DNA of 64,000 bases from Azolla caroliniana (lineage: Eukaryota > Plantae > Polypodiophyta), in the NCBI GenBank assembly GCA_043228905.1, contig JBHGNT010000001.1:22134001-22198000 (forward strand). The letters run 5' to 3'. A model generated the notes under the pieces. It ran no database searches, had not been told where the DNA came from, and saw only the letters and a program-made list of their open reading frames with translations. Made by a program: the position numbers and the translations under genes. Below, one piece after another: positions 12,280 to 52,817 of this stretch; positions within the stretch are counted from its first letter, which is position 1, and each line of letters starts with the position of its first letter.

Positions 12280-12394
12280 GCTCATCCGGTCTTCACCAGG
12301 TCTGTATCATCCGGCTCTCCGTAGTCGGGTCCTCCTCATACGGTTTCGGCACTGTTCTTCTCCCTTCCCATCCGGAGGGACCTGTCTCCCAACA
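12280..12394 (-). repeat. 5'-terminal fragment of an LTR from a Copia-5/7-like family
   Basis: Reverse complement starts TGTTGGGAGACAGGTCCCTCCGGATGGGA, similar to the TGTTGGGATT..GGTC..ATGGGA starts at 32199 and 58018. Confidence 0.65.
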
Positions 12395-12748
12395 AAATTA
12401 ATGATGTCGCTTTTCGTCTCGATCTACCTCCGCAACTTCGGATACATCCGGTGTTTCATAGTTCTCTCCTCGAACCCTATCAAGAGAGCACCATCCTAGG
12501 ACGTATTACACAACCTCCACCCCCAATCGAGCTTGAAGATGGACTTGAGTACAAGGTTGCCTCCATGCTTGATTCCAAGATTGTTCGCAACAAGCTCTAC
12601 TATCTAGTCGATTGGCTAGGATATAATCCCAACGAGCGTACTTGGGAACTGATAGAGCAATGCTCGTGCTCTTCTTGAAGACTTCCATCGTCAATATACA
12701 GACAAACTGGGTCCTCAATCCAAAATGACTCGTGACACTCGTCATTTT
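12395..12748 (+). pseudogene. Chromovirus A integrase C-terminus with chromodomain
   Basis: INDVAFRLDLPPQLRIHPVFHSSLL followed by EYKVASMLDSKIVRNKLYYLVDWLGYNPNERTWE; then PPT AAAGGGAGGATAG. Confidence 0.9.
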
Positions 12749-12767
12749 AAAGGGAGGATAGTGTCAT

Positions 12768-12837
12768 GATATGACAAGATTCGAACCCATGACTTTATGC
12801 TACATGGGTCGAGCTCTTGACCATTAGAACATACATT
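12768..12837 (-). other. tRNA-like (Pol III A/B-box) cassette in chromovirus LTR U3
   Basis: Minus strand reads GTTCT-AATGGTCA-AGAGC (D-arm-like) ... ATGGG-TTCGAAT-CTTGT (T-arm/B-box) with tRNA spacing. Confidence 0.6.
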
Positions 12838-12906
12838 GTAATACATAAAATATTATTTTCATTTATGTTTTATTATAGAAAATTGATGTATATTCTAGAT
12901 TTCTCT

Positions 12907-12926
12907 AGAACATTCTAGAAACTTCA
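12907..12926. promoter_or_regulatory. Perfect 4-unit heat-shock element
   Basis: aGAAcaTTCtaGAAacTTCa about 20 bp upstream of the TATA box. Confidence 0.7.
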
Positions 12927-13081
12927 GGAGTACTCCTAAGAACACTATAAAAGGAGGCACAAGGCATTATTTCGAACCAAATCGGTTCAATGCCAGTCTT
13001 AAGCCTCCTACTACTATTGTATACTCTCTTCACATAATATATATCATTTATCATCATTCTCTCTCACCCTCTCTCTTCCTA

Positions 13082-13786
13082 GAATTGCGTGGGATGCAAG
13101 CAAAAAGATCCAAAAGACGCATAAAAGCAAAATTTTGTGTTCCGGTTGGATGCAAGATATAGAAAAATGGTTTGGTAGATGGGATGCGAGACACTTGCTT
13201 CATGATGCATCATTAGATTCCTCTGTAAATGAGGCATTTTTGCAATGCCAATGTATCATGACATGGGACAAATGTGGAGGCTCACGCTTCACACATTATA
13301 CTACACATGTTGCACCTAACTACAAAACCATATTCTTTGCGGAACGGGGAAATCGTACACATCCATACATGTTAGAGCCCATACCGTTATCTGCCATTCG
13401 AACCATTGCTGCCATGCGACTTAGCTCACATGCATTGCGATGTGAAACAGGGCGTTGGGGTACAAGTGATGAGAGTGGTCGGCTATGCACACTTTGCCCT
13501 AAACAAGTTCGCGAGTCTGAGTATCACACTTTGATACAATGCTCTGCCTTTGATCATATCCGACCATGCTTTCCACATCTCTTCGATCGAGCCCAATCTT
13601 TGCATGAATTCCTCTCACAACCACAATGTGCACTCTCGATTGCAACATTCATTGGTAAAGTTCTTGAACATCGAGAGTCACTACTCACTTTCACACGTAT
13701 CACGTGAAATGTAATATTTTTGGTCTCATAGGTCATATTTGATCTCCGAAGACGATAATATAATCTATCTATCTATCTATCTATCT
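13082..13786 (+). mobile_element. 5'-truncated non-LTR retrotransposon 3' end (RTEX-like)
   Basis: ORF 13135-13707 with RLSSHALRCETGRW..RLCTLC..ESEYHTLIQC zinc-knuckle; (TAA)n(TCTA)n tail; similar CT-rich sequence on both flanks. Confidence 0.75.
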
Positions 13787-14851
13787 CTCTCTCTCTCTCT
13801 TGCTAACTCTTTCCTTCTCTCGAGAGTTCTACATCTTTCTTAGTACTAATCCTAATCTTTTAGTACTAATTCCTTCTCTGTCTTAGTACTGATCATGACA
13901 CATACAACAGATCCACTTCTCCATCAATCACTTTTTCTCTAATAAAGTGATAATGCACTTCAATGTGCTTTGTTCTTGAATGGAACACTAGGTTTTTTGC
14001 CAGCTGAATGTTGTTCATATTGTCACACCAAATTGTGACTGCACCATCTATATACTCACCCAAATCAGAAAGCAATCTTCTGATCCATACCTCTTCACAG
14101 GTGGCTATTGCAACTCCTCTATATTCAGCTTTAGTAGTTGATAGTGCAACAATAGCTTGTTTCTTGCTACTCCATGAAATAATTGCACATCCCAATGTAA
14201 AAATATATCCACATGTGGATCTTCTATCAGTTTGGCTTCCAGCCCAATCAGCATCTGTATATCCTTCCAGCTTTATGTCAAGATCAGCCTTGTAAAACAG
14301 TCCATAGTTATGAGTAGCTTTTACATACCTCAAGATTCTTCTAATGCAGTCCAAATGTGGCTTTATTGGCTGTTGCATAAACTGGCTGACTTATCCAACA
14401 ACATAACTCAAATCAGGTCTTGTTATGGTCAAATATATGAGGCTGCCCACCCTAGACCTGTACATGTTTACATCTTCTATTTTGGCTCCCAAATCAACCT
14501 TCAATTTGCAGTTCTTATCCAATGGTACACCAATAGGTTTGTATCCAAGCATACCATACTTCTTCAACATAGTTGTTACATACTATTTTTGCAACATATA
14601 TATACCACTTTCAGATCTAATCATCTCAATGCCAAGAAAGTATCTCAGCTCTCCCAAATCCTGCATATGAAATTGCATTTCAAGATTTTTTTTCAGCTTG
14701 CTTATTTAATCCATGGAATCACCTCCAATGATTAAATCATCAACATAAATCAAAATAACAACAATTCAATCATTTATCCTTTTTACATACAATGATGGAT
14801 CAGCCTTTGACATTTTAAAAGAAATTTTTTTCAAAGATTCTGAAAGTTCTT

Positions 14852-14901
14852 TATGGCTGTTAACCATAAGGTCGGAGGTTCAAACCCTCCCTGGAGCGCC
14901 A
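14852..14901 (+). tRNA. 3' 50-nt copy of tRNA-Asn(GTT) including CCA (retro-copied fragment, not a functional gene)
   Basis: TATGG-CTGTTAA-CCATA anticodon arm, AGGTC variable loop, GGAGG-TTCAAAC-CCTCC T-arm, CTGGAGCG-CCA; no D-arm or 5' acceptor strand. Confidence 0.9.
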
Positions 14902-14904
14902 AAA

Positions 14905-32198: not shown

Positions 32199-32801
32199 TG
32201 TTGGGATTACGGTCCCTTCTCATGGGATGGTCGGATACCGGAGATGGATGCCGACAAGCCGGTTTCGGTTTCGGATCCGGATGACGAAGACCCCGGTTTC
32301 GGTACCGGATGACGAATGTACCCGGAGAGCGATCCGGATGCAGGGACATATCCGTGAATATGTTCGCTATGGGCCTCTGAGGCTACAGTTGTAAATAGCC
32401 CAAAGTCATATAAGTATAAATATGACTTAGGGCAAACGTTTTTGTTGTTGCTTCTCATTTTTCTGTTTTTCCACTTTAGAGGAGTGAAGAGAGAGAGCAG
32501 CCGTGAGAGCGCGAGAGAGAAAGAGGTAGACGCCTCTGTGTATTTCCGCCGCCTGTGGCGAGGACAGCGAGCTCAAGGTCGTCGCCTTGGAGCTCGTCAT
32601 TGTATACTTCTCTGTATAGTGTTGTTTGGAGTCTTGTACTCCCGTGGTTTTTCCCCGTTTAGGGTTTTCCACGTTAATCCTTGTGTACTCGCGTTTCTTC
32701 GTTTTGTTTCTACGTGTGTTTCCTATTTTCTGCTCCATTGATCCGCGATTAATCGGTTGTGGCCGAGATAAGAAGGTGAATCCAATTGTCGATTCCTTAC
32801 A
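32199..32801 (+). repeat. Copia-5 5' LTR
   Basis: TGTTGGG...CTTACA. Confidence 0.97.
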
Positions 32802-32804
32802 AAC

Positions 32805-32816
32805 TGGTATCAGAGC
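32805..32816 (+). promoter_or_regulatory. Primer binding site, tRNA-iMet
   Basis: TGGTATCAGAGC 3 nt after the LTR. Confidence 0.95.
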
Positions 32817-32830
32817 GACTGTTGCAGAAA

Positions 32831-35800
32831 ATGGAAGGCGGCGGCAGCGGGCAGCCGATGATGATGGTGCTGAATGCACAGAATTACGCCGACTGGAAGA
32901 TCAAGATGGAGGATCTTCTGATCGTTCGGGACCTGTACGAACCGATTGACAGGTCGGAAATACCGAAGGGGGTACTTGAGTCGGAGTGGAAGCTCCTGAA
33001 CCGGAAAGCCGTAGCGACGATCCGACAATATGTCGATGTAAGCGTCCTACAACATGTGGCGAACGACACCAACGCATACGAGATGTGGAAGAAGCTGTCT
33101 GGCCTCTATGAGAGGAAGAATGCGTTGAACCGGACCTCCCTGATGAGGAAGATTGTGAATCTCAAGTATCGGGACGGCGAGAGTATGGTGGAACACGTAA
33201 GCACGTTCATGGGATTCGTGAACCAGCTTGCGGCGATCAAGTTCCCGTTGGAGGATGCAATGCAAGCCATCATCCTGATGTGTACATTGCCGGAAAGCTG
33301 GGAGAACTTGGTGGTGACTCTCAGCACCTCGTGCACCGAAGACAACTTGTCCTTACAAACTGTAAAGACAAGTATTCTGAATGAAGAAGCGCGTCGGAGA
33401 GATAAGGAACCGGCCTCCGACCCGAAGATGCTGTTTACCGAATCGGATCGGGGAAGACAATGGAACCGGAGTCCGCAAAGACGGGAGAAGTCGGGGACCC
33501 GGTCGCAGTCAAGAGGAAGGCCCACATGCTTCCACTGTGGGAAGCCGGGGCACTTCCGAAAGAATTGTCGGCATTACCGAAAAGACAACGGAGCCGACGA
33601 CACCGATTTGAAGAAGTCACCAGAGAGAAACGGTGCATACCGGGGAGCCACGGACCGGAGAGGTTCGGATCGGCGAGGGCAAGACCGGAAAGGAACAACG
33701 GCACTCGCGGCAAGTGAGGAAGAAATCATGCTCATCACCGAAGAAGGTGAGCTAAACGTTGCCGGCGATGAGACGACCTGGGTGGTCGATTCCGGAGCAT
33801 CGTTCCACCTGACCCCGGAGAGAAGATACTTCTCATCCTACACAGCCGGCGAGCATGGCTGTGTTCGGATGGGAAATGAAGGTACGTGCCGGATTGCCGG
33901 CATAGGAGACGTGTGGTTGACAACCCCGACCGGATGCAAAATGCTGCTGAAAGATGTCCGACACGTTCCGGAGGTTCGATTGAACCTGATTTCGGCCGGG
34001 AGGCTAGATGATGAAGGCTACACGGGTAGCATCCGGAACGGTGTCATGAAGTTCAGCAAGGGGAGCTTGATAGTGGTTCGGGCCCGGAAGGTCAACACAC
34101 TGTACCTGATGAATGCCCGGTTATGTCCGGAAGAGCTGAATGTGGCAGCCGACACTGCCGGTGAGCTGTGGCACAAAAGACTGTGCCACATGAGTGAGAA
34201 GGGGATGAAGAGGCTTGCAGAAGACAACCTTATTCCAGTGAAGCACGTGCACCTGGAGAAGTGCACCGATTGCCTGGCCGGTAAGCAGAACCGAACCTCC
34301 TTCCACTCAAGGCCACCGACGAGACGTAGCGCACCATTGGAGTTGGTGCACACGGATGTGTGTCAGGTAGAAACGAAGTCACATGGCGGAGCCCAGTACT
34401 TCGTGACTTTCATTGATGATCACAGCCGGAAGCTGTGGACGGCGCCGTTGAAGACAAAGGACCAAGTGTTGTCGGTCTTCAAAGAACTCCACGCGAGAGT
34501 GGAAAGGGAATCCGGCAAGAAGCTGAAAGCGATACGATCGGATAACGGAGGGGAATACCGGGGGCAGTTCCAGGAGTACTGTCGCTCGAAGGGAATCCGG
34601 CTCGAGTTTACTGTGCCGAAGACGCCGGAACTGAACGGGCTGGCCGAGAGGATGAACCGGACCATAATGGAGAGGGTCCGGAGTATGCTGGCACATGCGA
34701 AACTACCCAAGGGATTTTGGGCTGAGGCAATGTCGACGGCGACGTATGTGATAAATAGATCACCCTCAGTACCTTTGGACGGAGACACGCCGCAGAAAGT
34801 ATGGACCGGTAAGGAAGTGTCCTACCGGCATCTGAAGGTGTTCGGGTGTCTCGCATACGTGCATGTGGCAAAGGACCGGAGAGGAAAGCTAGATCCGAAG
34901 ACCCGGCCATGCATATTCCTCGGTTACGGCGACGACGAGTTCGGCTACCGAGTATGGGACCCGGTCGACAAGAAGATATTCAGGAGTCGAGATATCATCT
35001 TCATGGAGGACAAGACACTCGCCGACTGGGAGTCGGAGAAGAAGATGAAGAGCTCTAAGTCGACCGGTGAGGATCAACTCTACGAGGAGCAGTCCCGACC
35101 GGCAAGGGACCGGTTAGCACTCGAGGATCCGGCCGAAGACGGTGAAGACACAGAACCGGCCGAAGAAGATGAAAATGATGCCGGAACCGGCCCCGATCCC
35201 GAAATGGTCTCGGATGAAGAAGAATCGGAAGAACCGGTTACCGAAGCTCCGGAACGGAGATATCCTCTAAGAGAGAGAAGGGCCCCCCGGAGATTTCCGG
35301 AACCAGAGCACGTGCTGCTAACCGACGAGGGGGAGCCGGAGAGCTTTGAAGAAGCAAAGCACGACACCCAGAGCCGCAGGTGGTTGAGTGCCATGCAGGA
35401 CGAGATGGATTCCCTGCATGAGAACCACACATATGAACTTGTGGAGTTGCCGAAAGGAAAGCGGGCACTTCGAAACAAGTGGGTGTTCAAGCTGAAACCG
35501 GGAGATGCCGGAAATCCCCCGAGATACAAAGCCAGGATCGTGGTAAAGGGGTTTCAGCAGAAGAAGGGCGTCGACTTCGACGAGATATTCGCCCCGGTAG
35601 TGAAGATGACCTCCATCCGGACGGTGCTGAGCATAGCGGCAAGCATGGACCTCGAGGTAGAACAGATGGACGTGAAGACGGCATTCCTTCACGGCGACCT
35701 CGATGAAGAGATCTACATGCAGCAACCAGAAGGATTCGAGAAGAAAGGGAAGGAGCACCTGGTATGCCGGTTGAAGAAGAGCCTTTACGGACTGAAGCAG

Positions 35801-36904
35801 GCTCCCCGGCAATGGTACCGGAAGTTCGACTCCTTCATGACCGACGAAGGGTACCTCAAAACGCAGTCCGACCACTGCGTGTTTGTGAAGAAGTTCGAAG
35901 GAGGAGACTCTCTAATACTCCTCCTGTACGTGGACGACATGTTGATCGTCGGACAGGACCAGGTCAAGATACGGATGCTGAAGAAGGCTCTTCACCGAAC
36001 CTTCTCAATGAAGGACCTGGGTCCGGCGAGGCAAATACTAGGGATGCACATCATCCGGGACCGGAAGAAGAAGCAGTTGTGGCTGTCACAGGAGAAGTAC
36101 GTGACGAAGGTGCTTCAACGGTTCAACATGTCGGAAGCAAGACCGGTCGGATCGACCCTCCCGGCAAACTGCAAGCTGTCCAGCGAGCAAAGTCCCAAGA
36201 CAAAGGCCGAAAAGGAGGATATGATGAAAGTGCCGTATGCCTCAGCCGTCGGGAGCTTGATGTACGCCATGGTGTGTACGAGACCGGACATAGGATATGC
36301 AGTCGGAGTGGTAAGCCGGTACATGAGCAATCCCGGCAGAGAGCATTGGAACGCGGCCAAGTGGATACTCCGATACCTGAAGGGCACGGCAAACGTGTGC
36401 CTCCGATTCGGCTCCGGTAAGCCCGAACTCGACGGCTTCACCGATTCGGATATGTCGGCTGATGCAGATACCAGCCGGTCCACATCAGGGTATGTGATGA
36501 CGTATGCAGGGGGAGCTGTTTCATGGCAGTCGAGGCTGCAGAAGACGGTTGCGTTGTCAACCACGGAGGCAGAGTACATGGCGGCTGTTGAAGCCGGCAA
36601 GGAAATAATATGGATGAAGGACTTCATTAGAGAGCTCGGTATCCGACAGGAGGAGTACCGACTCTACTGCGACAGTCAGAGTGCAATCCACCTTGCAAAG
36701 AACGCGGCCTATCACTCCCGGACAAAGCACATCCAGCGAAGATATCACTGGATCCGGGAAAGGATAGAAGACAAGGAGTTCGTGCTGACGAAGATCCACA
36801 CAGACGAGAACGGGTCGGATATGCTGACCAAGGTGCTTACACCCGACAAGCTGGAAGCATGCCGGAAGAGGATCGGATTGGAGCGACATCCCATGCAGAA
36901 GTGA
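32831..36904 (+). CDS. Copia gag-pol polyprotein (gag, CCHC, protease, integrase, RT, RNase H), 1357 aa
   Basis: Open from ATG 32831: CFHCGKPGHFRKNC, WVVDSGAS, HTD/SDNGGE/NGLAER, MDVKTAFLHG, LYVDDM, FTDSD, HSRTKHI. Confidence 0.97.
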   Translation: MEGGGSGQPMMMVLNAQNYADWKIKMEDLLIVRDLYEPIDRSEIPKGVLESEWKLLNRKAVATIRQYVDVSVLQHVANDTNAYEMWKKLSGLYERKNALNRTSLMRKIVNLKYRDGESMVEHVSTFMGFVNQLAAIKFPLEDAMQAIILMCTLPESWENLVVTLSTSCTEDNLSLQTVKTSILNEEARRRDKEPASDPKMLFTESDRGRQWNRSPQRREKSGTRSQSRGRPTCFHCGKPGHFRKNCRHYRKDNGADDTDLKKSPERNGAYRGATDRRGSDRRGQDRKGTTALAASEEEIMLITEEGELNVAGDETTWVVDSGASFHLTPERRYFSSYTAGEHGCVRMGNEGTCRIAGIGDVWLTTPTGCKMLLKDVRHVPEVRLNLISAGRLDDEGYTGSIRNGVMKFSKGSLIVVRARKVNTLYLMNARLCPEELNVAADTAGELWHKRLCHMSEKGMKRLAEDNLIPVKHVHLEKCTDCLAGKQNRTSFHSRPPTRRSAPLELVHTDVCQVETKSHGGAQYFVTFIDDHSRKLWTAPLKTKDQVLSVFKELHARVERESGKKLKAIRSDNGGEYRGQFQEYCRSKGIRLEFTVPKTPELNGLAERMNRTIMERVRSMLAHAKLPKGFWAEAMSTATYVINRSPSVPLDGDTPQKVWTGKEVSYRHLKVFGCLAYVHVAKDRRGKLDPKTRPCIFLGYGDDEFGYRVWDPVDKKIFRSRDIIFMEDKTLADWESEKKMKSSKSTGEDQLYEEQSRPARDRLALEDPAEDGEDTEPAEEDENDAGTGPDPEMVSDEEESEEPVTEAPERRYPLRERRAPRRFPEPEHVLLTDEGEPESFEEAKHDTQSRRWLSAMQDEMDSLHENHTYELVELPKGKRALRNKWVFKLKPGDAGNPPRYKARIVVKGFQQKKGVDFDEIFAPVVKMTSIRTVLSIAASMDLEVEQMDVKTAFLHGDLDEEIYMQQPEGFEKKGKEHLVCRLKKSLYGLKQAPRQWYRKFDSFMTDEGYLKTQSDHCVFVKKFEGGDSLILLLYVDDMLIVGQDQVKIRMLKKALHRTFSMKDLGPARQILGMHIIRDRKKKQLWLSQEKYVTKVLQRFNMSEARPVGSTLPANCKLSSEQSPKTKAEKEDMMKVPYASAVGSLMYAMVCTRPDIGYAVGVVSRYMSNPGREHWNAAKWILRYLKGTANVCLRFGSGKPELDGFTDSDMSADADTSRSTSGYVMTYAGGAVSWQSRLQKTVALSTTEAEYMAAVEAGKEIIWMKDFIRELGIRQEEYRLYCDSQSAIHLAKNAAYHSRTKHIQRRYHWIRERIEDKEFVLTKIHTDENGSDMLTKVLTPDKLEACRKRIGLERHPMQK

Positions 36905-36914
36905 AGGGGGAGTT

Positions 36915-37515
36915 TGTTGGGATTACGGTCCCTTCTCATGGGATGGTCGGATACCGGAGATGGATGCCGACAAGCCGGTTTCGGTTTCGGATCCGGATGA
37001 CGAAGACCCCGGTTTCGGTACCGGATGACGAATGTACCCGGAGAGCGATCCGGATGCAGGGACATATCCGTGAATATGTTCGCTATGGGCCTCTGAGGCT
37101 ACAGTTGTAAATAGCCCAAAGTCATATAAGTATAAATATGACTTAGGGCAAACGTTTTTGTTGTTGCTTCTCATTTTTCTGTTTTTCCACTTTAGAGGAG
37201 TGAAGAGAGAGCAGCCGTGAGAGCGCGAGAGAGAAAGAGGTAGACGCCTCTGTGTATTTCCGCCGCCTGTGGCGAGGACAGCGAGCTCAAGGTCGTCGCC
37301 TTGGAGCTCGTCATTGTATACTTCTCTGTATAGTGTTGTTTGGAGTCTTGTACTCCCGTGGTTTTTCCCCGTTTAGGGTTTTCCACGTTAATCCTTGTGT
37401 ACTCGCGTTTCTTCGTTTTGTTTCTACGTGTGTTTCCTATTTTCTGCTCCATTGATCCGCGATTAATCGGTTGTGGCCGAGATAAGAAGGTGAATCCAAT
37501 CGTCGATTCCTTACA
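36915..37515 (+). repeat. Copia-5 3' LTR
   Basis: Near-identical to 32199-32801. Confidence 0.97.
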
Positions 37516-37724
37516 AAATCGGCCTTCGGGCAATTAGAGGTCATGGTCGTCGGACACCTATGCGGGTTGTACGACCGGAAACCGTCTCCGGCTAAGGTAG
37601 AAGCCATCTCCGCGATGAAGCACAACTGTAGCTCGGTCACGGAGGTTCGGAGGTTCTTGGGAGCATGCGCGTTCTACCACATATGGATCCCGCATTACGC
37701 CCACGTCGCGGAGCCGTTATACGG

Positions 37725-40999: not shown

Positions 41000-41070
41000 G
41001 CGTCACCCGGACTTGAACCTCGAACCTTGTAATCCATACTTGAAAACCTCAACCATTAAGATAGTTTATT
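41000..41070 (-). other. tRNA-like (Pol III A/B-box) cassette in LTR U3
   Basis: Minus strand reads ATCTT-AATGGTT-GAGGT ... GGTTCAAGTCC; same 35-nt spacing as the copy at 12768-12837. Confidence 0.55.
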
Positions 41071-41132
41071 GTTATATAAAAAAATAAAAGCTACTTCTTA
41101 TATTACATTGATTATTGTAAAAACTCTAGATT

Positions 41133-41182
41133 ATTCTAGAATGTTCTAGAATGTCCTTGAGCATTCTAGAACATTCTAGAAA
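41133..41182. promoter_or_regulatory. Two perfect 4-unit heat-shock elements
   Basis: aTTCtaGAAtgTTCtaGAAt (41133-41152) and aTTCtaGAAcaTTCtaGAAa (41163-41182) just upstream of the TATA box. Confidence 0.75.
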
Positions 41183-41405
41183 TCTCTAAGCTATTCTATA
41201 GGAACCTATAAATAAGGGCATACATGTATTCTCAAATCAATTCGAATCAACACTAGTCTTTAGCTCTCATTACATATCTTGTATCCCTTCTCTTTCTTTC
41301 TCTATCTTATACATCCATTCTTCTCTTAGTATTTGGTTCCTTTCTTCTCATGTTCTCTAATATCCTTCTTCCATCACTCTATCTTTTATCCTTGGTTCTG
41401 ACAGT

Positions 41406-41412
41406 TTGATTC

Positions 41413-41417
<5 letters not shown>
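41406..41417 (+). promoter_or_regulatory. Self-priming PBS (Tf1-type)
   Basis: TTGATTCGAATT is the exact reverse complement of AATTCGAATCAA at 41239-41250, about 32 nt after the TATA box; no tRNA-type PBS. Confidence 0.82.
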
Positions 41418-41473: not shown

Positions 41474-44400
41474 ATGGCTGCCATTAACTCAGAAGAATAT
41501 CTCACCCTTGTTGCAGAAATGGAGAACCTTAAATCCAAATTCGCATCTCTTGAAGTAGAGAATCAACGTCTACTTGGGGATCTACAAAAGGTTACTATAG
41601 AGAAGCCACAACAACAAGGGGAGTTCACGCGACGAGTGCAACAGTTAGAGTCGACAATCGTAGTGTTACAACAACAAAGGGTTGAAGGTCAGGGACTTAT
41701 CAAGGAGCCCAAAATTAGCCTCCCAACTAAATTTGATGGGTCGAGGGCGCATTTCCGAGGTTTTTTGAATCAAGTATGGTTGGTGATTCAAATGCATCCC
41801 GCGTGTTATCCAACAGATGCATCACGAGTCGGGCTAGTGGGCACCTTATTGACTGGCATAGCGTTGTCGTGGTTTGCTCCATTGCTAGAGAACAATTCTC
41901 CTCTACTGAATAATTTTGAGGAATTTATCAAGGAATTTAAGGCGTGTTTTGGAGATACTGATGGGGCGAGAACAGCTATCAACAAGATTCATACACTTCC
42001 TCAAGGTGATCAACCAGCTTCGACATATGTTGCCAATTTCCGTCTCATCGCAAGCGATATTCCTTGGGATGAACAAGCCCTAATGGAGCAATTCCGTTCA
42101 GGCCTTTGTAGTGATGTCAAAGACTTACTTCTTACCTTCCCCGAGGATCCAAGGTCACTTACAGAAGCTATTAGTCGAGCAATACGGTGTGATAATCACC
42201 TTTTTGAGCGTCGATGTGAGCGACAACAACAATAACAAGATCAAGATTCACACCAACTTATGCATCAGTAACGGCGCAATCATCCCCAAGGCAAATGTAT
42301 AGCCCTGCTCCAACTCCAAGGCAAACACGTAGTCCAAACCCAATGGATAGTCCTGCACCCATGGAGATCGATATGACTCAACGACGAGGACCGTTGTCAG
42401 GCGAAGAGAAGCAACGTCATCGAGCAAACCATATGTGCTTATATTGCGGAGGTCCAAGACATATAGCCATTCATTGCTCCCGTAGGCCGAGACGTCAGGT
42501 AAATCAAATTCACTATGACAATAAAAATGAGTCCAACATTTTAGAAGCAGTTAGTGAATCTAATATTATGAATAATCCACCCTTGTCCAATAAATTTGAA
42601 GTCCTAAGCCAATTAGAAGAGGAGTCAAACGAATAAGTCCGGCCAAAATAGGAGCCATTTGGTTGGACAACCCTAAATATGTACAACCTAGTGTGGGTTC
42701 CATTTCTTCCAAGCATGTTAGTAGAGTCTTCTCAGCCCTAGTACAAGTTAGGACACCTAGTTGTCAACTTCAAGTCCAAGCCCTCTTAGATACTAGAGCC
42801 AATTCTTGTTTCATGGATAGAGATTTTTCCCAAAAACACCAAATATCCTTGCATACACTTCCTTGTCCAGTTTCCGTAGTAGTGATTGATGGACGCCCCA
42901 TAGCTTCCGGGAAGATATTTGAAGAGTCTGAGCCAATACACATACTCTTGGGTGATTTAGGATGTGTAGTTTCCCTTAACATAATCCGTAGTCATGAGCA
43001 TCCAATTGTCCTCGGTTTGCCATGGTTCAAGCTACATAACCCTAGAATCGATTGGAGGAAGCGAGAAATTAGGTGCCCTTTAGCAGAAAATATCATTGTC
43101 AAGGATCGAACTCGGGATTATCCTCCTAAAGTATATAGTTCTACCGATGCACCATATCCTTCTCATCAAATTTCAGCCATCACATTGCAACAATTATGCC
43201 AAGTGGGAGGCAAGGAGGACCTTTTCTTATTTGCAGTATCAATGACACCTTCTAGTGTCACTCAAGGGAATTCAGACATCCAAATTCTCAAAAAATATCA
43301 AGACTATGCTGATGTTTTCGACAAAGTCAAAGCTAGTGTTCTTCCAAAGCATCGGCCGTATGACTGTCCTATTGATCTCCAACCAAAAAAAGAGCCACTG
43401 TGGGGTCCGATTTACAATTTATCACCCACTGAGCTTGAGGTTCTTCGAGAATACATTGAGGAAAATCTTGCACATGGGTTTATTCGACATTCAAAGTCTC
43501 CAGTTGGTGCTCCTATCTTTTTTGTGAAGAAAGAGGACGGCTCCCTTCGTTTGGTCGTGGACTATCGAGGCTTAAAAAAAATCACCATAAGGAATAGGTA
43601 TGCTTTACCTTTAATCTCCAATCTCTTAGAACGCATTGGTGGGGCAAAGCATTTTACCAAAATTGATCTAAGGGGTGCATATAATCTTGTTCAAATTCGG
43701 CCGGGAGATGAGTGGAAAACAACATTTCGTACTCGGTATGGTCATTTCGAGTATACAGTCATGCATTTCGGGCTCACAAATGCACCTACAGTATTCCAAC
43801 ATATGGCAAATGACATCTTCCGGGATTTCTTGGATATTTTTCTAATCATCTACCTAGATGATCTATTGATTTACTCTAAAACATAGGGGGAGCATGATAT
43901 ACATGTGCGGCAAGTACTTGAACGCCTAAGGAAGTGTGGTCTTTATGCCAAACTTGAGAAATGCAGTTTTGATTGCAAACAAGTCAAATTTTTGGGATAC
44001 ACTATTTCATCCCAGGGTGTTTTCATGGACCCGGCAAAAGTCCAAACAATATTGGAATGGAAACCCCCATGCTCAGTTCGGGATGTCCAGTGTTTCCTTG
44101 GATTTGCGAACTTCTATCGCAAATTCATACATAATTATTCAAGCATTGTGTGGCCCCTTACTCAACTCACCAAGAAAAATCAAGCATTTTTTTGGAGTGT
44201 CGAAGCGGACAAGGCTTTTACGCAGCTGAAAGAGGCATTCACATCAGCACCCATCCTAGCACATATTGATCCTGAAAAGCCATTTACTATTGAGGCGGAT
44301 GCATCAGACTTTGCATTGGGGAGTATCCTATCGCAACCAGGCGAGGACATGCAAACACATCCAGTCGCATTTCACTCGAGAAAATTTACTGTTTCAGAGA

Positions 44401-45606
44401 TAAACTATGAGGTGCATGACAAGGAGTTACTAGCTATGGTCGACTCATTCGAGCAATGGCGTCATTTTCTAGAAGGATCACCTCATCAGATTATCATTTA
44501 TAGTGATCACAAAAATCTCACATATTTTCAAATAGCTCGAGTATTAAATAGACAACAAGCTCAGTGGGCCCAATTTCTAACACGTTTCGATTTCAAGATC
44601 ATTTTTCGCCCCGGAAAACAACAAGGGAAAGCAGATGCTCTTTCTCGGCGTTCATATCTAGCACTTCGACCTGGAGATCCGGCCTTTGACAATCAAAAGC
44701 AAACTCTCCTCGGGCCATCAAAGCTATAGGTAACAACAATTTATGCCACGCCACTTGATTCTACCCTTCTTGACACTATTCGGCAACAACTTCATTCGGA
44801 TGATTTTGCTAAGGATGTCTTAGCCCACTGTGGTTCAAGTCGTCCATCTTGCTCCACATTGCCAAGCTCATTTCAACATTATCAGGACTTCAAGTGGCAA
44901 GATGGCTTACCCTTCTACAAGAATCTCCTTTACGTCCCCGACAGATCACCCCGACTTCAAGTGTTGGAACATTGTCATGACGCCCCCATGCCTGGACATT
45001 TTGGTATTTCCAAGACCAGTGAGCTGGTGAAACGTTCGTTTTGGTGGCCTCACTTGCAAAAATTTGTCGAAGATTATGTTCGTACTTGTGACACCTGCTG
45101 TCGCACCAAAATACCCCGGCATCACCCTTATGGCTTACTACAACCATTACCCCCTCCCAACAAGCCATGGCAGTCTATTTCTATGGATTTCATTACGGAT
45201 CTACCACCTTCCAAAGCCTTTGATACTATTTTAACAATAGTGGATCGGTTCACCAAGATGGCACATTTTGTACCATGTGTAAAGACCATCAATAGTGAAG
45301 AAACTGCAGATCTCATTATGCGTGAAGTGTTTCGCCATCATGGTCTCCTGAATGATATTATTAGCGATCGAGGTCCTCAATTTATCTCACACTTTTGGAA
45401 GCACCTATGGGCAGGCCTCAAAATCTCTTGCAAACTGTCTTCGGCTTATCATCCACAAACTGACGGACAAACAGAGTGCACAAATCAAACGCTCGAGCAA
45501 TATCTTCGATGTTTCATTAGTTATCAACAAGATGATTGGAGTAATATTTTCCATCTTGCCGAGTTTGCATACAACAACACGACCCACTCTTCTACCAAAG
45601 TTACAC
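41474..45606 (+). pseudogene. Chromovirus B gag-pol with several stops and frameshifts
   Basis: Gag PTKFDG and CLYCGG; protease ALLDT; RT YLDD; RH EADASD; IN SISMDFITDLP, SDRGPQF, HPQTDGQTE. Confidence 0.92.
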
Positions 45607-48368
45607 TTGGTTCCATGATCGTCGGGTCCACGCACCCGATCTCCCCCAACGCGAATGCGAAGGCCTTACCATGCCTTCCAAGCATTCTCCGAAACCTCTC
45701 CTCCTTTACCGGTAGTAGGAAGCCACCACCATCGACCTTGAGCTCCCGTAGCGTTATGTCGGTGAACTGGTGTCCTATGCCGGTCGGATTCCACAAACTT
45801 GGGTCTCACGTGACCCCTTTCATTTGTTCCTCGCTGCCCTCCGGCAAGGGGGCTGCAACTGGCCTCACCTTCCAGTCCACAGCCTTGTACCTCGTATCCA
45901 CGCAAGCCGTCCGATCTGACCTAACCCTTTCCCTGAAGTCTGCAATGACTTTGTACATTTCCACCGAGTTGACTGGAATCACTTGGTCTTCATTGAGGCC
46001 TTCATCGATCACCTTTCCCATTTCCCCCCAGGTGTCGTCGAAAGAGACCACCTCCACGGCGCTGCTAATTCCTTCGTCAGGGCGGAGGACCCCGCACTCT
46101 CTGAAAAGTTCCTCGGCCTTCTTCTTCTCCCGGTCATCGACGTCGGCTATCGTACAACCTCCGTTATTGGAGACCCAAAACCGGAGTGTCCGGACTATCA
46201 CGGCCCCATGCCTTGATAGCCCTCTCTAAAAATCCCCTCAGTTGTCGCCGCCGAGGGTCTCGCGGTTATGCTCATGGTTCGGTTGCACTGCCAGAAATTG
46301 GATGGAGTGTCGTTCATCTTGGCTCTTCACACGCGCGTACACCGAACCGTTATCCAGCACCTTTGTCTCCATGCATGCAGCCGTAATGTACGATTCGCCA
46401 AGTATCACCGGGTGCGAGGATGTCTCCTGCATGAAGAAGTGTTGATCAATCTCGACATCACCAATCTTCACACGTACATTCGGGCAAGCCCCGTGCAGCT
46501 CCTCCGTGGCACGTGTTGCCGCGCGTATCTTCCACCCATGCTTGGTGTTGATCGGCCACTTCCCTTTTTTATAGAAGTCCATAAACATCAGGTTGATCTC
46601 CGACCCATGGTCGATCAGCGCCACTACCGGCTCCTGGACATTCCTGACCCGAACTAGGGTTTCCGTAGTAGCCCTGGCCCAGTGCAACTTCGAATAGTGG
46701 CTCTCCGCCAACTCGTTTTCCAGGGCCGCATCCTCCAGGTGCGTCGTTCGCACCTCCACCGGCTTCTCCAACTCCGGCTCCGTTGAGAGCCGTTTACGCT
46801 TCACCAAGTCCACGATGGAATCGTGGAACTCCTTCTTGGCGATCCCAAGCACCTCCCTCAACGACAACTCCACCTTGCTATTGAAATTCCGCTCCTCAAG
46901 AACCTTCCACAGGTCCATCGTCCTTTCGATTTCGGTGCTCAACCGGTAACCGGTCGGCCTTGCTTTGTCTGTCATGCCGGGATTGCTGGCTTCATTCCTC
47001 TTCAGCCCGAACCAGGTCTCGTACCGATTCTGGGCCGTGGTCCCACCGGCCTTCCCTACCCTCTTATCATCCACCAAAATGTCATAGTTATGGCATGCGG
47101 CTTCCACGAAGCCGGTCTTCTCCTCTACCGGGTCGTCCCACCTGGTGATCTCCCAGACCCACTGCTCCGCGCGGTCCGCTTCTTCCCTCTTCAGTCGTGC
47201 GTCGGAGAGGCCTTCTAGCTCTTCTAGCACCAAGGGCCAGAAGCCGAATTCTTTCGTTTTCCGATCTTCGTTACCACCTACCCGGATTCCGGCAGATGCC
47301 GAATAATGGATAGCTTCTACATGGCGCGCCTCCGCTTCTTCCATTAACCGCTTCATCCTGCCGCGCCCGAAATTTTTCTCTACGGCTCTCCGGGTATAAA
47401 CACCGTGCACCCGTTCATTCCATAGGTACACCATATTACCCCTGAGGGCCTCGGCAAACTCCACACAATCTTGCTGGCGCACCATATACACCGTTGTCCA
47501 ACCGGTGGCCTCCGGTCGTGTGGCTGCCCTCCATTGTCTCTCCGGGCCTACGCGATCTTTAAGTTGCGCACCATTTGTGTCAGCTCCTCAAGAGCCGCTC
47601 CTCCGGATGGGCCCTTCACAGCGTCGGTCGATGTTGAGCCCGTCTCAAGCCAATCCTGGGTTCCCTCTTTTCGTGTCGGCGAAGGCTCATCGAAGTTCTT
47701 TGTCGGGACGGGTCTCGCCACCGACGATCCCTCGCCGCCCCATTCACGCCGTTTGTCAAAACGGCCACAGACTCTCTTCACCATGGCCCAGTCGGCCGTC
47801 AACCCGTCATCCATCTCCAGTAGGAGACCCACTTGATCCCAATCCCGCACATCCACCGCTTTGACAAACAATAGGACCCGGCTCGTGTCTAGCACGGTCA
47901 TGTTCAATGTCGAGAGTTGTGCGAAGCGTTCTTCGAACTCCCGGAGGAGCTTCGACGCATTCCTCCCCTTTTCGGGGGTCTCCACCCACTCCATGAAGTC
48001 TCGCTTCGATAACCGAAACGCGTCATCAAGCCCGTACCATTCAAGGAGCCGTGCTTCGAATTCTACCCAGGTCCGGCATCCGGCCTGTACCTCGAGCACC
48101 TCTGTGTGGATGCCCGGTGTCGCCACCCAAGGGAACCCGGCCAGACGCCTATCCTCCAGAATGTCCCTCATCACCATCTCGGCCCAGTAGGCCTCCAAAT
48201 AGCTCGTGGCGTCGTTTCCACTGAACCGGCCTATTGTGCCGACAATTGCTTCAATGGCCCTATCGAGGGCGCTCGTGCCCTCGCAAGCACTTACTATCCG
48301 ATCGATTGCTGCCAACATGGCTTCGGCGAGCTCTGATCCCCTCATCTTCGACTCCTCTGCCGCCTTGT

Positions 48369-51725: not shown

Positions 51726-52817
51726 CAGAGACATCCAGCGGACAACGGATGGAGCCAACCTGCCAATGGAGACGGTTACGGACAAAGCCGGTCGCCGGAC
51801 AACGGCGACCGACCGATGGACAACTGGCTAGACCGCCAACAGGTGGTCGGATGGCGAGTGGAAACGACGGCTGGAGAGAATGACAGATGCAGAGAAGAAA
51901 GAGAAGACATACGCAAGAAAGAGAAGACATGCGCAGAGAAGGAAAAGAGGAAGCAAGGAAGAGGAAGAAGAAGCATCTGAAGGAAGCCGGAGATAGAAGC
52001 TCGAAATGCTCTACAGAAAAGCTGAGAAAGAAGCCATAGTACACCTTAATGCAGCCCCCTTGACACATAAAACCAAAACAGGTTCAATAAAGGAAATTCA
52101 GAAGGGTTTATGGAAGAAAAAGAAGAGAGGAGGGAGATGAGAAAAACAGACGAAGAAGAAATCAGAAGAACAAGAAGATACAGACAGAGAGAGAAAAAGA
52201 AAAAAGGAGAAGAAGAGGGGAAGAGAAGAAAATTTGAAGAAATAGAAACAAAATTTCATAAGTTCGTAAGGGCAGAGAGGAAAATTTCCATAATTTGAGG
52301 GCATACTATCGAATTTCAGAAGCTCGAGTGTTGAAGAGAAAATTTCGAATAAGCAAGGGCCGAAAAAAATAAAATTTAAATGCAAAACATGAGGGTACAA
52401 ATTAGAACTTTAAAAATTAAGGGGTACAAATCATGAAATTACAAAAACACTACTCACATGATGAAAGAAAGAATACATAAATACACAAAACGAGTTCACG
52501 ACCCATGTTGCAGTGAACTAGCCAATTGGTGTATGATCCAATCATGCATTCTGCTGACCGAACAAGAAGGTTCGAGTCAACCAAAGCTCCGATTGAAGTT
52601 CTCGATTGTAGAGCAGTGACCGTTGAGACGACCGATGGAGTTCCGGTCGAGAAGAGTTCCATACGCAGGGCCTGTCCATTGCTCAATATGCAGGGCCTAC
52701 CCATGACGAGTGAGTTCACCGTGCAATGCACTGTCCCATAGGCATGCCATGTGTTACTCGGAAGAATATACGGGGAGGCATAAGGGTATGTGTAATGATG
52801 TGGTTGATGTGTATGTA

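Follow-up and report, generated by a model that had tools for sequence, protein, structure and literature searches.

Two chromovirus long terminal repeats (LTRs) from Azolla caroliniana open with minus-strand A and B boxes, and comparison of related elements indicates that this cassette is real and under selection. Its kept, two-fold and free positions match, as far as the aligned letters tell, the degeneracy of a type-2 Pol III promoter, judged against the textbook consensus. The cloverleaf has been lost, and the cassette is not a tRNA gene. We give an even chance to the reading that the cassette is a tRNA-derived TFIIIC/Pol III site placed back to back with a Pol II promoter, where it would likely keep that promoter open in heterochromatin. 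The DNA analysed was one stretch of 64,000 nucleotides, called the window below, together with loci that carry related elements.

Two LTRs with antisense boxes in a nest of retroelements

The window is a nest of retroelements. The domain order in its pieces, assigned with Pfam, is gag, RT, RNase H, integrase and chromodomain, which is that of Ty3/gypsy elements. LTR1 is the 3’ LTR of element 1: it starts at 12762, after an SH3-like domain, a chromodomain and a polypurine tract (PPT), ends at 13900 and is split by an insert. LTR2 is the 5’ LTR of element 2; position 41001 lies inside it, and its end at 41403 is followed by a primer-binding site (PBS) as well as gag. The features of both elements are as follows.

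12394..12651, plus strand: pol end of element 1 with SH3-like domain and chromodomain (Pfam PF24626, E 5e-9; PF00385, E 2e-7)
12749..12761, plus strand: polypurine tract of element 1, a purine run abutting TGTCA; related loci are arranged alike
12762..13900, plus strand: 3’ LTR of element 1, with an unrelated insert at about 13077-13755 and a terminal inverted repeat
12771..12824, no strand assigned: long imperfect inverted repeat over the LTR1 cassette, a predicted hairpin (-21.3 kcal/mol, z -4.2)
12778..12787, minus strand: LTR1 B box, tRNA positions 52-61, 9 of 9 consensus matches
12791..12795, minus strand: LTR1 variable-loop motif, positions 44-48; position 45 is unlike most copies
12821..12831, minus strand: LTR1 A box, tRNA positions 8-19, 7 of 8 consensus matches
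12945..12952, plus strand: LTR1 TATA-like box of a putative Pol II promoter; the motif recurs at the matching place in related LTRs
41001..41403, plus strand: 5’ LTR of element 2, 93% identical to L030; the first ~24 bp are absent in this copy
41010..41019, minus strand: LTR2 B box, 9 of 9 consensus matches
41023..41027, minus strand: LTR2 variable-loop motif, positions 44-48
41053..41063, minus strand: LTR2 A box, 7 of 8 consensus matches
41206..41214, plus strand: putative LTR2 TATA-like box
41239..41250, plus strand: predicted self-primer of element 2 at the start of R, a 12-nt perfect complement of the PBS
41406..41417, plus strand: primer-binding site of element 2, self-priming
41474..45620, plus strand: decayed gag and pol of element 2 (PF03732, PF19259, PF00078, PF17921, PF00665)

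The first-pass annotation had described a D-arm-like hairpin, a B box and a tRNA-like spacing between the D-loop GG and the G before TTC, and the motifs were indeed found in the places given, on the minus strand of the two LTRs. The offset from G19 to G53 is 35 in each (34 bases between), which is the spacing of class-I tRNAs. When the A and B boxes were scored together against the textbook consensus, each cassette reached 16 of 17, a score attained by none of 60 dinucleotide shuffles (means 11.4 and 11.8). Only three sites in the whole window, on both strands, score at least 16, and two of them are the LTR cassettes. The third, also 16 of 17, lies at 52519-52578 on the plus strand, outside the chromoviruses and with a spacing of 41; from its letters it would be either chance or a SINE head. 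LTR1 differs from most copies at position 10 of the A box, and among the variants listed for this LTR those inside the boxes fall at positions 9, 10, 12 and 59. For LTR2, 2 of the 40 variable places listed fall in 41000-41077.

The same annotation had treated the two LTRs as copies of one family. They gave no blastn alignment with one another, and the two elements share 69% identity in RT-RNaseH; LTR1 and LTR2 hence belong to two different families. The description of the cassette as outward-facing holds for the 5’ LTR and fails for the 3’ LTR. Because 12762 starts a 3’ LTR while 41001 lies within a 5’ LTR, the cassette faces host DNA in the latter only; in the 3’ LTR it faces the element’s own PPT and chromodomain.

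Both families have close relatives. LTR1 is 95% identical to L001 over 12762-13076, and its distal part, 13755-13900, matches the ends of the LTRs in L001, L003 and L019 at 77-83% identity. The gag and pol region of element 2 is 91% identical to L035, and a nested insertion cuts off its coding region after the integrase core. A longer LTR2 start was seen in three of four sequencing runs, with loose ends before 41000-41009, and both LTR families are abundant in the four runs, which carry four organism labels and come from two studies.

The elements themselves are, by their sequence, Tcn1-like, self-priming chromoviruses, and so are their relatives. The chromodomain carries Y, W and Y at the aromatic-cage positions, both in P0001 and in most alignment rows. 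Two long open reading frames (ORFs) are present in loci such as L011, L012, L014, L017, L019, L020, L023, L037, L050 and L058, and the cassette-bearing relatives have gag together with a pol ORF of ~1200 codons. In the window and in eight loci, the 12 nt of the PBS are complementary to the start of R, and each of the four PBS variants matches the R of its own element. Self-priming has been reported for Tcn1; the criterion in the accessible part of that report is complementarity of the PBS to 10 nt or more of the 5’ LTR (PMC6317226). The cassette is thus not the primer.

By eye, the RT is ~75% identical to that of SM-Tcn1 from Selaginella, an element with over 200 genomic hits according to the available sections of its description (PMC2864245). 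SM-Tcn1 shares the aromatic-cage chromodomain and the self-priming, and its R-start and PBS motifs look nearly identical by eye (PMC2864245, PMC6317226, both in excerpt). In contrast, its LTR, as displayed in the part of PMC2864245 at hand, opens with short tandem repeats and shows by eye no antisense B box. Since SM-Tcn1 shows none on this inspection, the cassette is not needed by the whole clade and is a feature of a sub-lineage. The nearest Atlas clusters are commonest in Basidiomycota (two clusters) and Streptophyta (one), with few taxa recorded, and no relatives of the elements were found in the viral and prokaryote collections searched. The distribution of the clade (PMC6317226) and the leaf and plant metagenome labels on some runs suggest a host among the non-seed plants. 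We also observed that the self-primer at the start of R resembles the core of a plus-strand B box and is near-palindromic, in the 12988 region, at 41239-41250 and in L013, L019, L050 and L055. A self-priming match is visible in SM-Tcn1 too; the accessible part of PMC2864245 reports no priming evidence for it.

Conservation of the boxes across related elements

Relatives were fetched by the chromodomain alone, blind to LTR content, which gave 77 loci. The LTR start was called by the PPT rule in 59 and by hand in 3, while 2 loci were too short and 13 were uncallable. Of these loci, 71 belong to one run of neighbouring assembly accessions, and the families are deeply diverged. A score of at least 15 of 17 was found at 44 of the 62 LTR starts on the minus strand, compared with 1 of 62 on the plus strand, and the spacing is 34-35 in 42 of the 44 although 30-45 was allowed. 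The proposed retention of both boxes at the U3 edge across the lineage is upheld, as is the tRNA origin of the cassette. Five loci without the cassette (L041, L051, L067, L068 and L070) were set apart as distant after the result was known, and the other 57 give 44 versus 1; L067, the only one of the five that was compared, has 42-45% pol identity. Among the 13 loci without a callable start, the cassette is still visible after a deletion in L043 and L064 and is absent in L065.

The background upstream of the LTRs (265,522 nt, both strands) contains 10 sites scoring at least 16, which include two real tRNA genes and at least two upstream LTR copies; the cassette is also present in the upstream LTR copies of L023 and L037. 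Separately, the minus strand of the internal coding region of L023, L035, L037 and L039, which form one family group, gives A+B scores of 16-17 with a spacing of 33-40.

Independent SINE insertions were considered as a source of the cassettes and ruled out. When LTRs were clustered by single linkage at 75%, 15 of 27 clusters had a member scoring at least 15, and these clusters share the place and the orientation of the cassette. The displayed rows contain no A-rich tail, and with the LTR ending just 11-65 nt beyond the B box, there is no room for a SINE body or tail.

Selection was assessed in 10 intact elements with long pol ORFs and an anchored cassette (three more lacked an anchored row). 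These gave 43 element pairs with a fourfold identity below 0.6, and the pairs are non-independent. Across them the pol proteins are 73% identical and fourfold-synonymous sites have an identity of 0.39, with 0.28 expected at random. The invariant box positions have an identity of 0.90, and positions 44-48 of the variable loop, which were not scored, have 0.87. In contrast, the anticodon region or spacer has 0.37, the acceptor strands 0.37-0.38 and the free positions within the boxes 0.32. The boxes are thus far better kept than the neighbouring DNA, and a neutral relic is excluded by the gap between 0.87-0.90 and the 0.37-0.39 of spacer and synonymous sites.

Because the pairs are non-independent and the box figure is inflated by anchoring on the boxes, we repeated the test on a score-blind MAFFT alignment of 57 LTR starts. 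Its information peaks are T8, Y11, A14, G18, G19, T35, G45-T47, G51-C56, A58 and C61. In 49 of the 57 LTRs the stretch from position 8 to position 61 measures 53-54 nt, with the distance to the LTR end varying as given above. A58 is kept in 56 of 57 LTRs and the adjacent N59 is free, and a change to A occurs at G53 in 0 of 57, at G51 and G52 in 11 of 57 each, and at R57 in 24 of 57. A-box letter G10, retained by just 7 of the 20 representatives, counts against the promoter reading. A CAA start motif lies 5-8 nt before T8 in several families, not in one column. Positions 45-49 were also read as a W-box; this reading was dropped because positions 48 and 49 vary.

The lost tRNA fold and the role of the cassette

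While the letters of the boxes are kept, the fold around them is gone, and this is why tRNA finders miss the cassette. The Rfam tRNA model gave no match at either window site or at any cassette in 20 loci, and ARAGORN found no tRNA gene at either window site or at any cassette; among 58 loci, tRNA genes were present in one. That locus, L027, carries two true tRNA genes for Asn and Thr (553-626 and 832-905, facing, ~100 bp from a truncated chromovirus fragment), which served as a positive control for Rfam at 65-68 bits. A covariance-model hit on the reverse strand and covariation in the D and T stems, both put forward as checks at the outset, were thus not seen. In 20 representatives, the D stem pairs in 48 of 80 cases versus 45.2 for shuffled partners (p = 0.22), and the anticodon (42 of 100, p = 0.13), T (63 of 100, p = 0.62) and acceptor (46 of 140, p = 0.33) stems behave alike. 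RNAalifold on 22 rows returned 0 pairs and no lineage-wide structure. The D-arm-like hairpin of the first-pass annotation is not supported as a kept structure by the D-stem result, and LTR1 is off the majority at its A-box position 10. A T4 terminator lies within the LTR in 6 of the 20 representatives, within ~36 nt beyond it in 7, and far away or absent in 7. Without a conserved terminator or stem covariation, a role at the DNA level is favoured over one defined RNA.

The lineage of LTR1 may perhaps be an exception to this preference, owing to a long hairpin predicted there. The inverted repeat at 12771..12824 was matched in stability by 0 of 200 shuffles, the corresponding z values in L001, L002, L019 and L020 are -4.4 to -6.3, and the predicted ~54-nt hairpin pairs the B box with positions 15-35. 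These values bear on the reading that the boxes are a working Pol III promoter whose product is an antisense or hairpin RNA regulating the element or the host, which we consider improbable, although it is the best placed of the alternatives. Boxes and spacing are both kept, as transcription, which needs both boxes, would require, and 3 of 7 consensus hairpin pairs, in a hand-picked set of 16, have changed on both sides. In foamy viruses, moreover, A/B-box-dependent microRNAs are encoded in the LTRs, according to the available part of PMC3993851. However, z is -2 or lower in just 2 of 20 representatives and is +1.8 in LTR2. Across the lineage the inner and outer registers of the long hairpin are not significant and the middle register reaches p = 0.05. 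The hairpin is also equally stable on the plus strand, and there is the variable terminator to account for.

A role in the genomic RNA, in which base pairing of the cassette to the T and D arms of a tRNA from the host would aid dimerisation, packaging or strand transfer, appears less probable still. It would account for the fixed spacing and for the conserved positions 44-47, and the strand and place are as in the Ty3 U3 segments that pair with T-psi-C and D arms (PMC5371799, from the accessible part). Against this, self-priming leaves no tRNA bound at the 5’ end. Substitutions compatible with G-U pairing occur in 0 of 57 LTRs at G53, T54 and T55 and are common at neighbouring positions, and positions 12, 13 and 59, inside the would-be duplexes, are free.

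A tRNA relic reused as sites for Pol II factors, or carried as a neutral passenger, is slightly less plausible again. Each kept block has a GGT core, which could be a repeated site for one factor, but TFIIIC accounts better than a short Pol II site would for the ten-base pattern of free and two-fold B-box positions and for the tRNA spacing, and neutrality is excluded by the identities reported above. Integration targeting, with TFIIIB/TFIIIC on the LTR attracting insertions or the element seeking Pol III genes, is the least probable role: the two real tRNA genes of L027 do lie 100-450 bp from a truncated element, but they are the only ones in 58 loci, the breakpoints in 59 LTRs are mostly near LTR ends, with no cluster upstream of the A box (on metagenome contigs this is a weak test), and the insert in LTR1 is ~250 bp away from its A box.

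The reading that we prefer is the TFIIIC/Pol III site beside the Pol II promoter. Promoter-like degeneracy and tRNA spacing in both boxes make it likely that a Pol III pre-initiation complex forms. An ancestor would have captured a tRNA gene or SINE head once. The A and B boxes, which lie in the opening ~90 bp of U3, would then bind TFIIIC and set a putative Pol III complex beside the element’s own Pol II promoter, and TFIIIB might load on the AT-rich DNA that separates the A box from the Pol II TATA box. The separation is 100-197 bp in the 9 of 20 representatives in which a TATA box was called. Any Pol III transcript would enter host DNA when started in the 5’ LTR and cross the PPT in antisense when started in the 3’ LTR, presumably mostly as a by-product. 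The benefit would be an LTR promoter that stays open, or is bounded against silencing, in heterochromatin. The chromodomain integrase is thought to steer the element into heterochromatin, and TFIIIC sites have chromatin barrier activity. RLG1, a chromodomain Gypsy element of the moss Physcomitrium, resides in heterochromatic islands and yet is transcribed, as described in the accessible part of PMC7466625.

One aspect of the data counts against this mechanism. TFIIIC tolerates longer A/B spacing, and the near-fixed spacing, the conserved positions 44-47 and T35 are more than two boxes alone should require. A bolder version, which we offer tentatively and hold to be rather doubtful, is that this autonomous, heterochromatin-seeking lineage took over a tRNA promoter of its host as a portable TFIIIC/Pol III module, back to back with the Pol II promoter, which would insulate it from silencing at the places where it inserts, and that the transcript of one sub-lineage has become a microRNA-like hairpin.

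Known systems and further features of the window

Promoters derived from tRNA or 5S genes are known in the LTRs of non-autonomous TRIMs, namely Helenus, Ajax and Cassandra (PMC10886601). Helenus (TRIMp3, Kojima 2024) likewise has tRNA-derived sequence in both LTRs. Unlike the cassette-bearing elements, which have intact gag and pol and self-prime, it is non-autonomous, 311-1263 bp long and tRNA-primed (PMC10886601). Its boxes are proposed to make the template RNA (PMC10886601), whereas the chromovirus boxes are antisense to the genomic RNA and a TATA-type promoter is kept; because they point against it, the chromovirus boxes cannot make genomic RNA. The same study notes that ‘not a few’ Repbase LTRs resemble parts of tRNAs and limits its analysis to TRIMs (PMC10886601). 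Cassandra also keeps the Pol III promoter of a small-RNA gene in plant LTRs, but that promoter is 5S-derived, sits in a non-autonomous element and drives the element’s own RNA (PMC10886601; PMC10946416, available part).

Outside plants, the foamy-virus microRNA genes are Pol III A/B-box units in the LTR of an autonomous and otherwise Pol II retroelement, and the excerpted source gives experimental proof of their terminators and hairpin products (PMC3993851). The cassette differs from these units in that it has no lineage-wide terminator or fold and keeps tRNA spacing. The bipartite PBS of Ty3 resembles the cassette in that its U3 is complementary to the T and D arms of a tRNA; Ty3 is, however, primed by that tRNA, as the accessible part of PMC5371799 describes, while the chromoviruses self-prime and their variation follows promoter degeneracy. 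No description of an antisense A/B cassette in an autonomous plant chromovirus was found in the openly accessible papers and reviews searched.

The cassette would carry the occurrence of Pol III promoters in LTRs beyond TRIMs, where they serve the template RNA, and into autonomous elements, in which their direction is reversed. Silent chromatin is regarded as the insertion target of chromoviruses, which must nonetheless be transcribed there. A selected, putative TFIIIC/Pol III site at the outer U3 edge offers mutagenesis a concrete cis target and opens the barrier activity of Pol III sites to experiment in a plant. If the insulator-module reading is true, copies in their thousands would spread Pol III sites and chromatin boundaries across the repeats of the host.

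Several other features of the window were recorded. TCTAGA palindromes are repeated in the U3 of both LTR families (12890-12930 and 41120-41190), between the cassette and the TATA box, and they are the cause of weak Rfam matches to MIR4378 at 41135-41180. The insert in LTR1, 13077-13755, contains an open frame of ~200 codons with no Pfam match and shares 82% identity across 386 nt with the DNA that lies downstream of the LTR in L057; a Cys/His-rich stretch suggests that it is possibly the 3’ end of a LINE. A young copia element occupies 32199-37517, with LTRs 99.5% identical and an unbroken 1374-codon ORF, and is nested in a non-chromovirus gypsy element. Finally, the 3’ two-thirds of a tRNA-Asn(GTT) ending in CCA lies at 14836-14903 on the plus strand, inside a copia RT gene (Rfam 30.5 bits), with unannotated sequence from there to about 15480, and shares 93% identity with the tRNA-Asn of L027 across 46 nt. 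Its minus strand resembles a PBS extended by about 50 nt into the tRNA, as if a mature primer tRNA had been captured.
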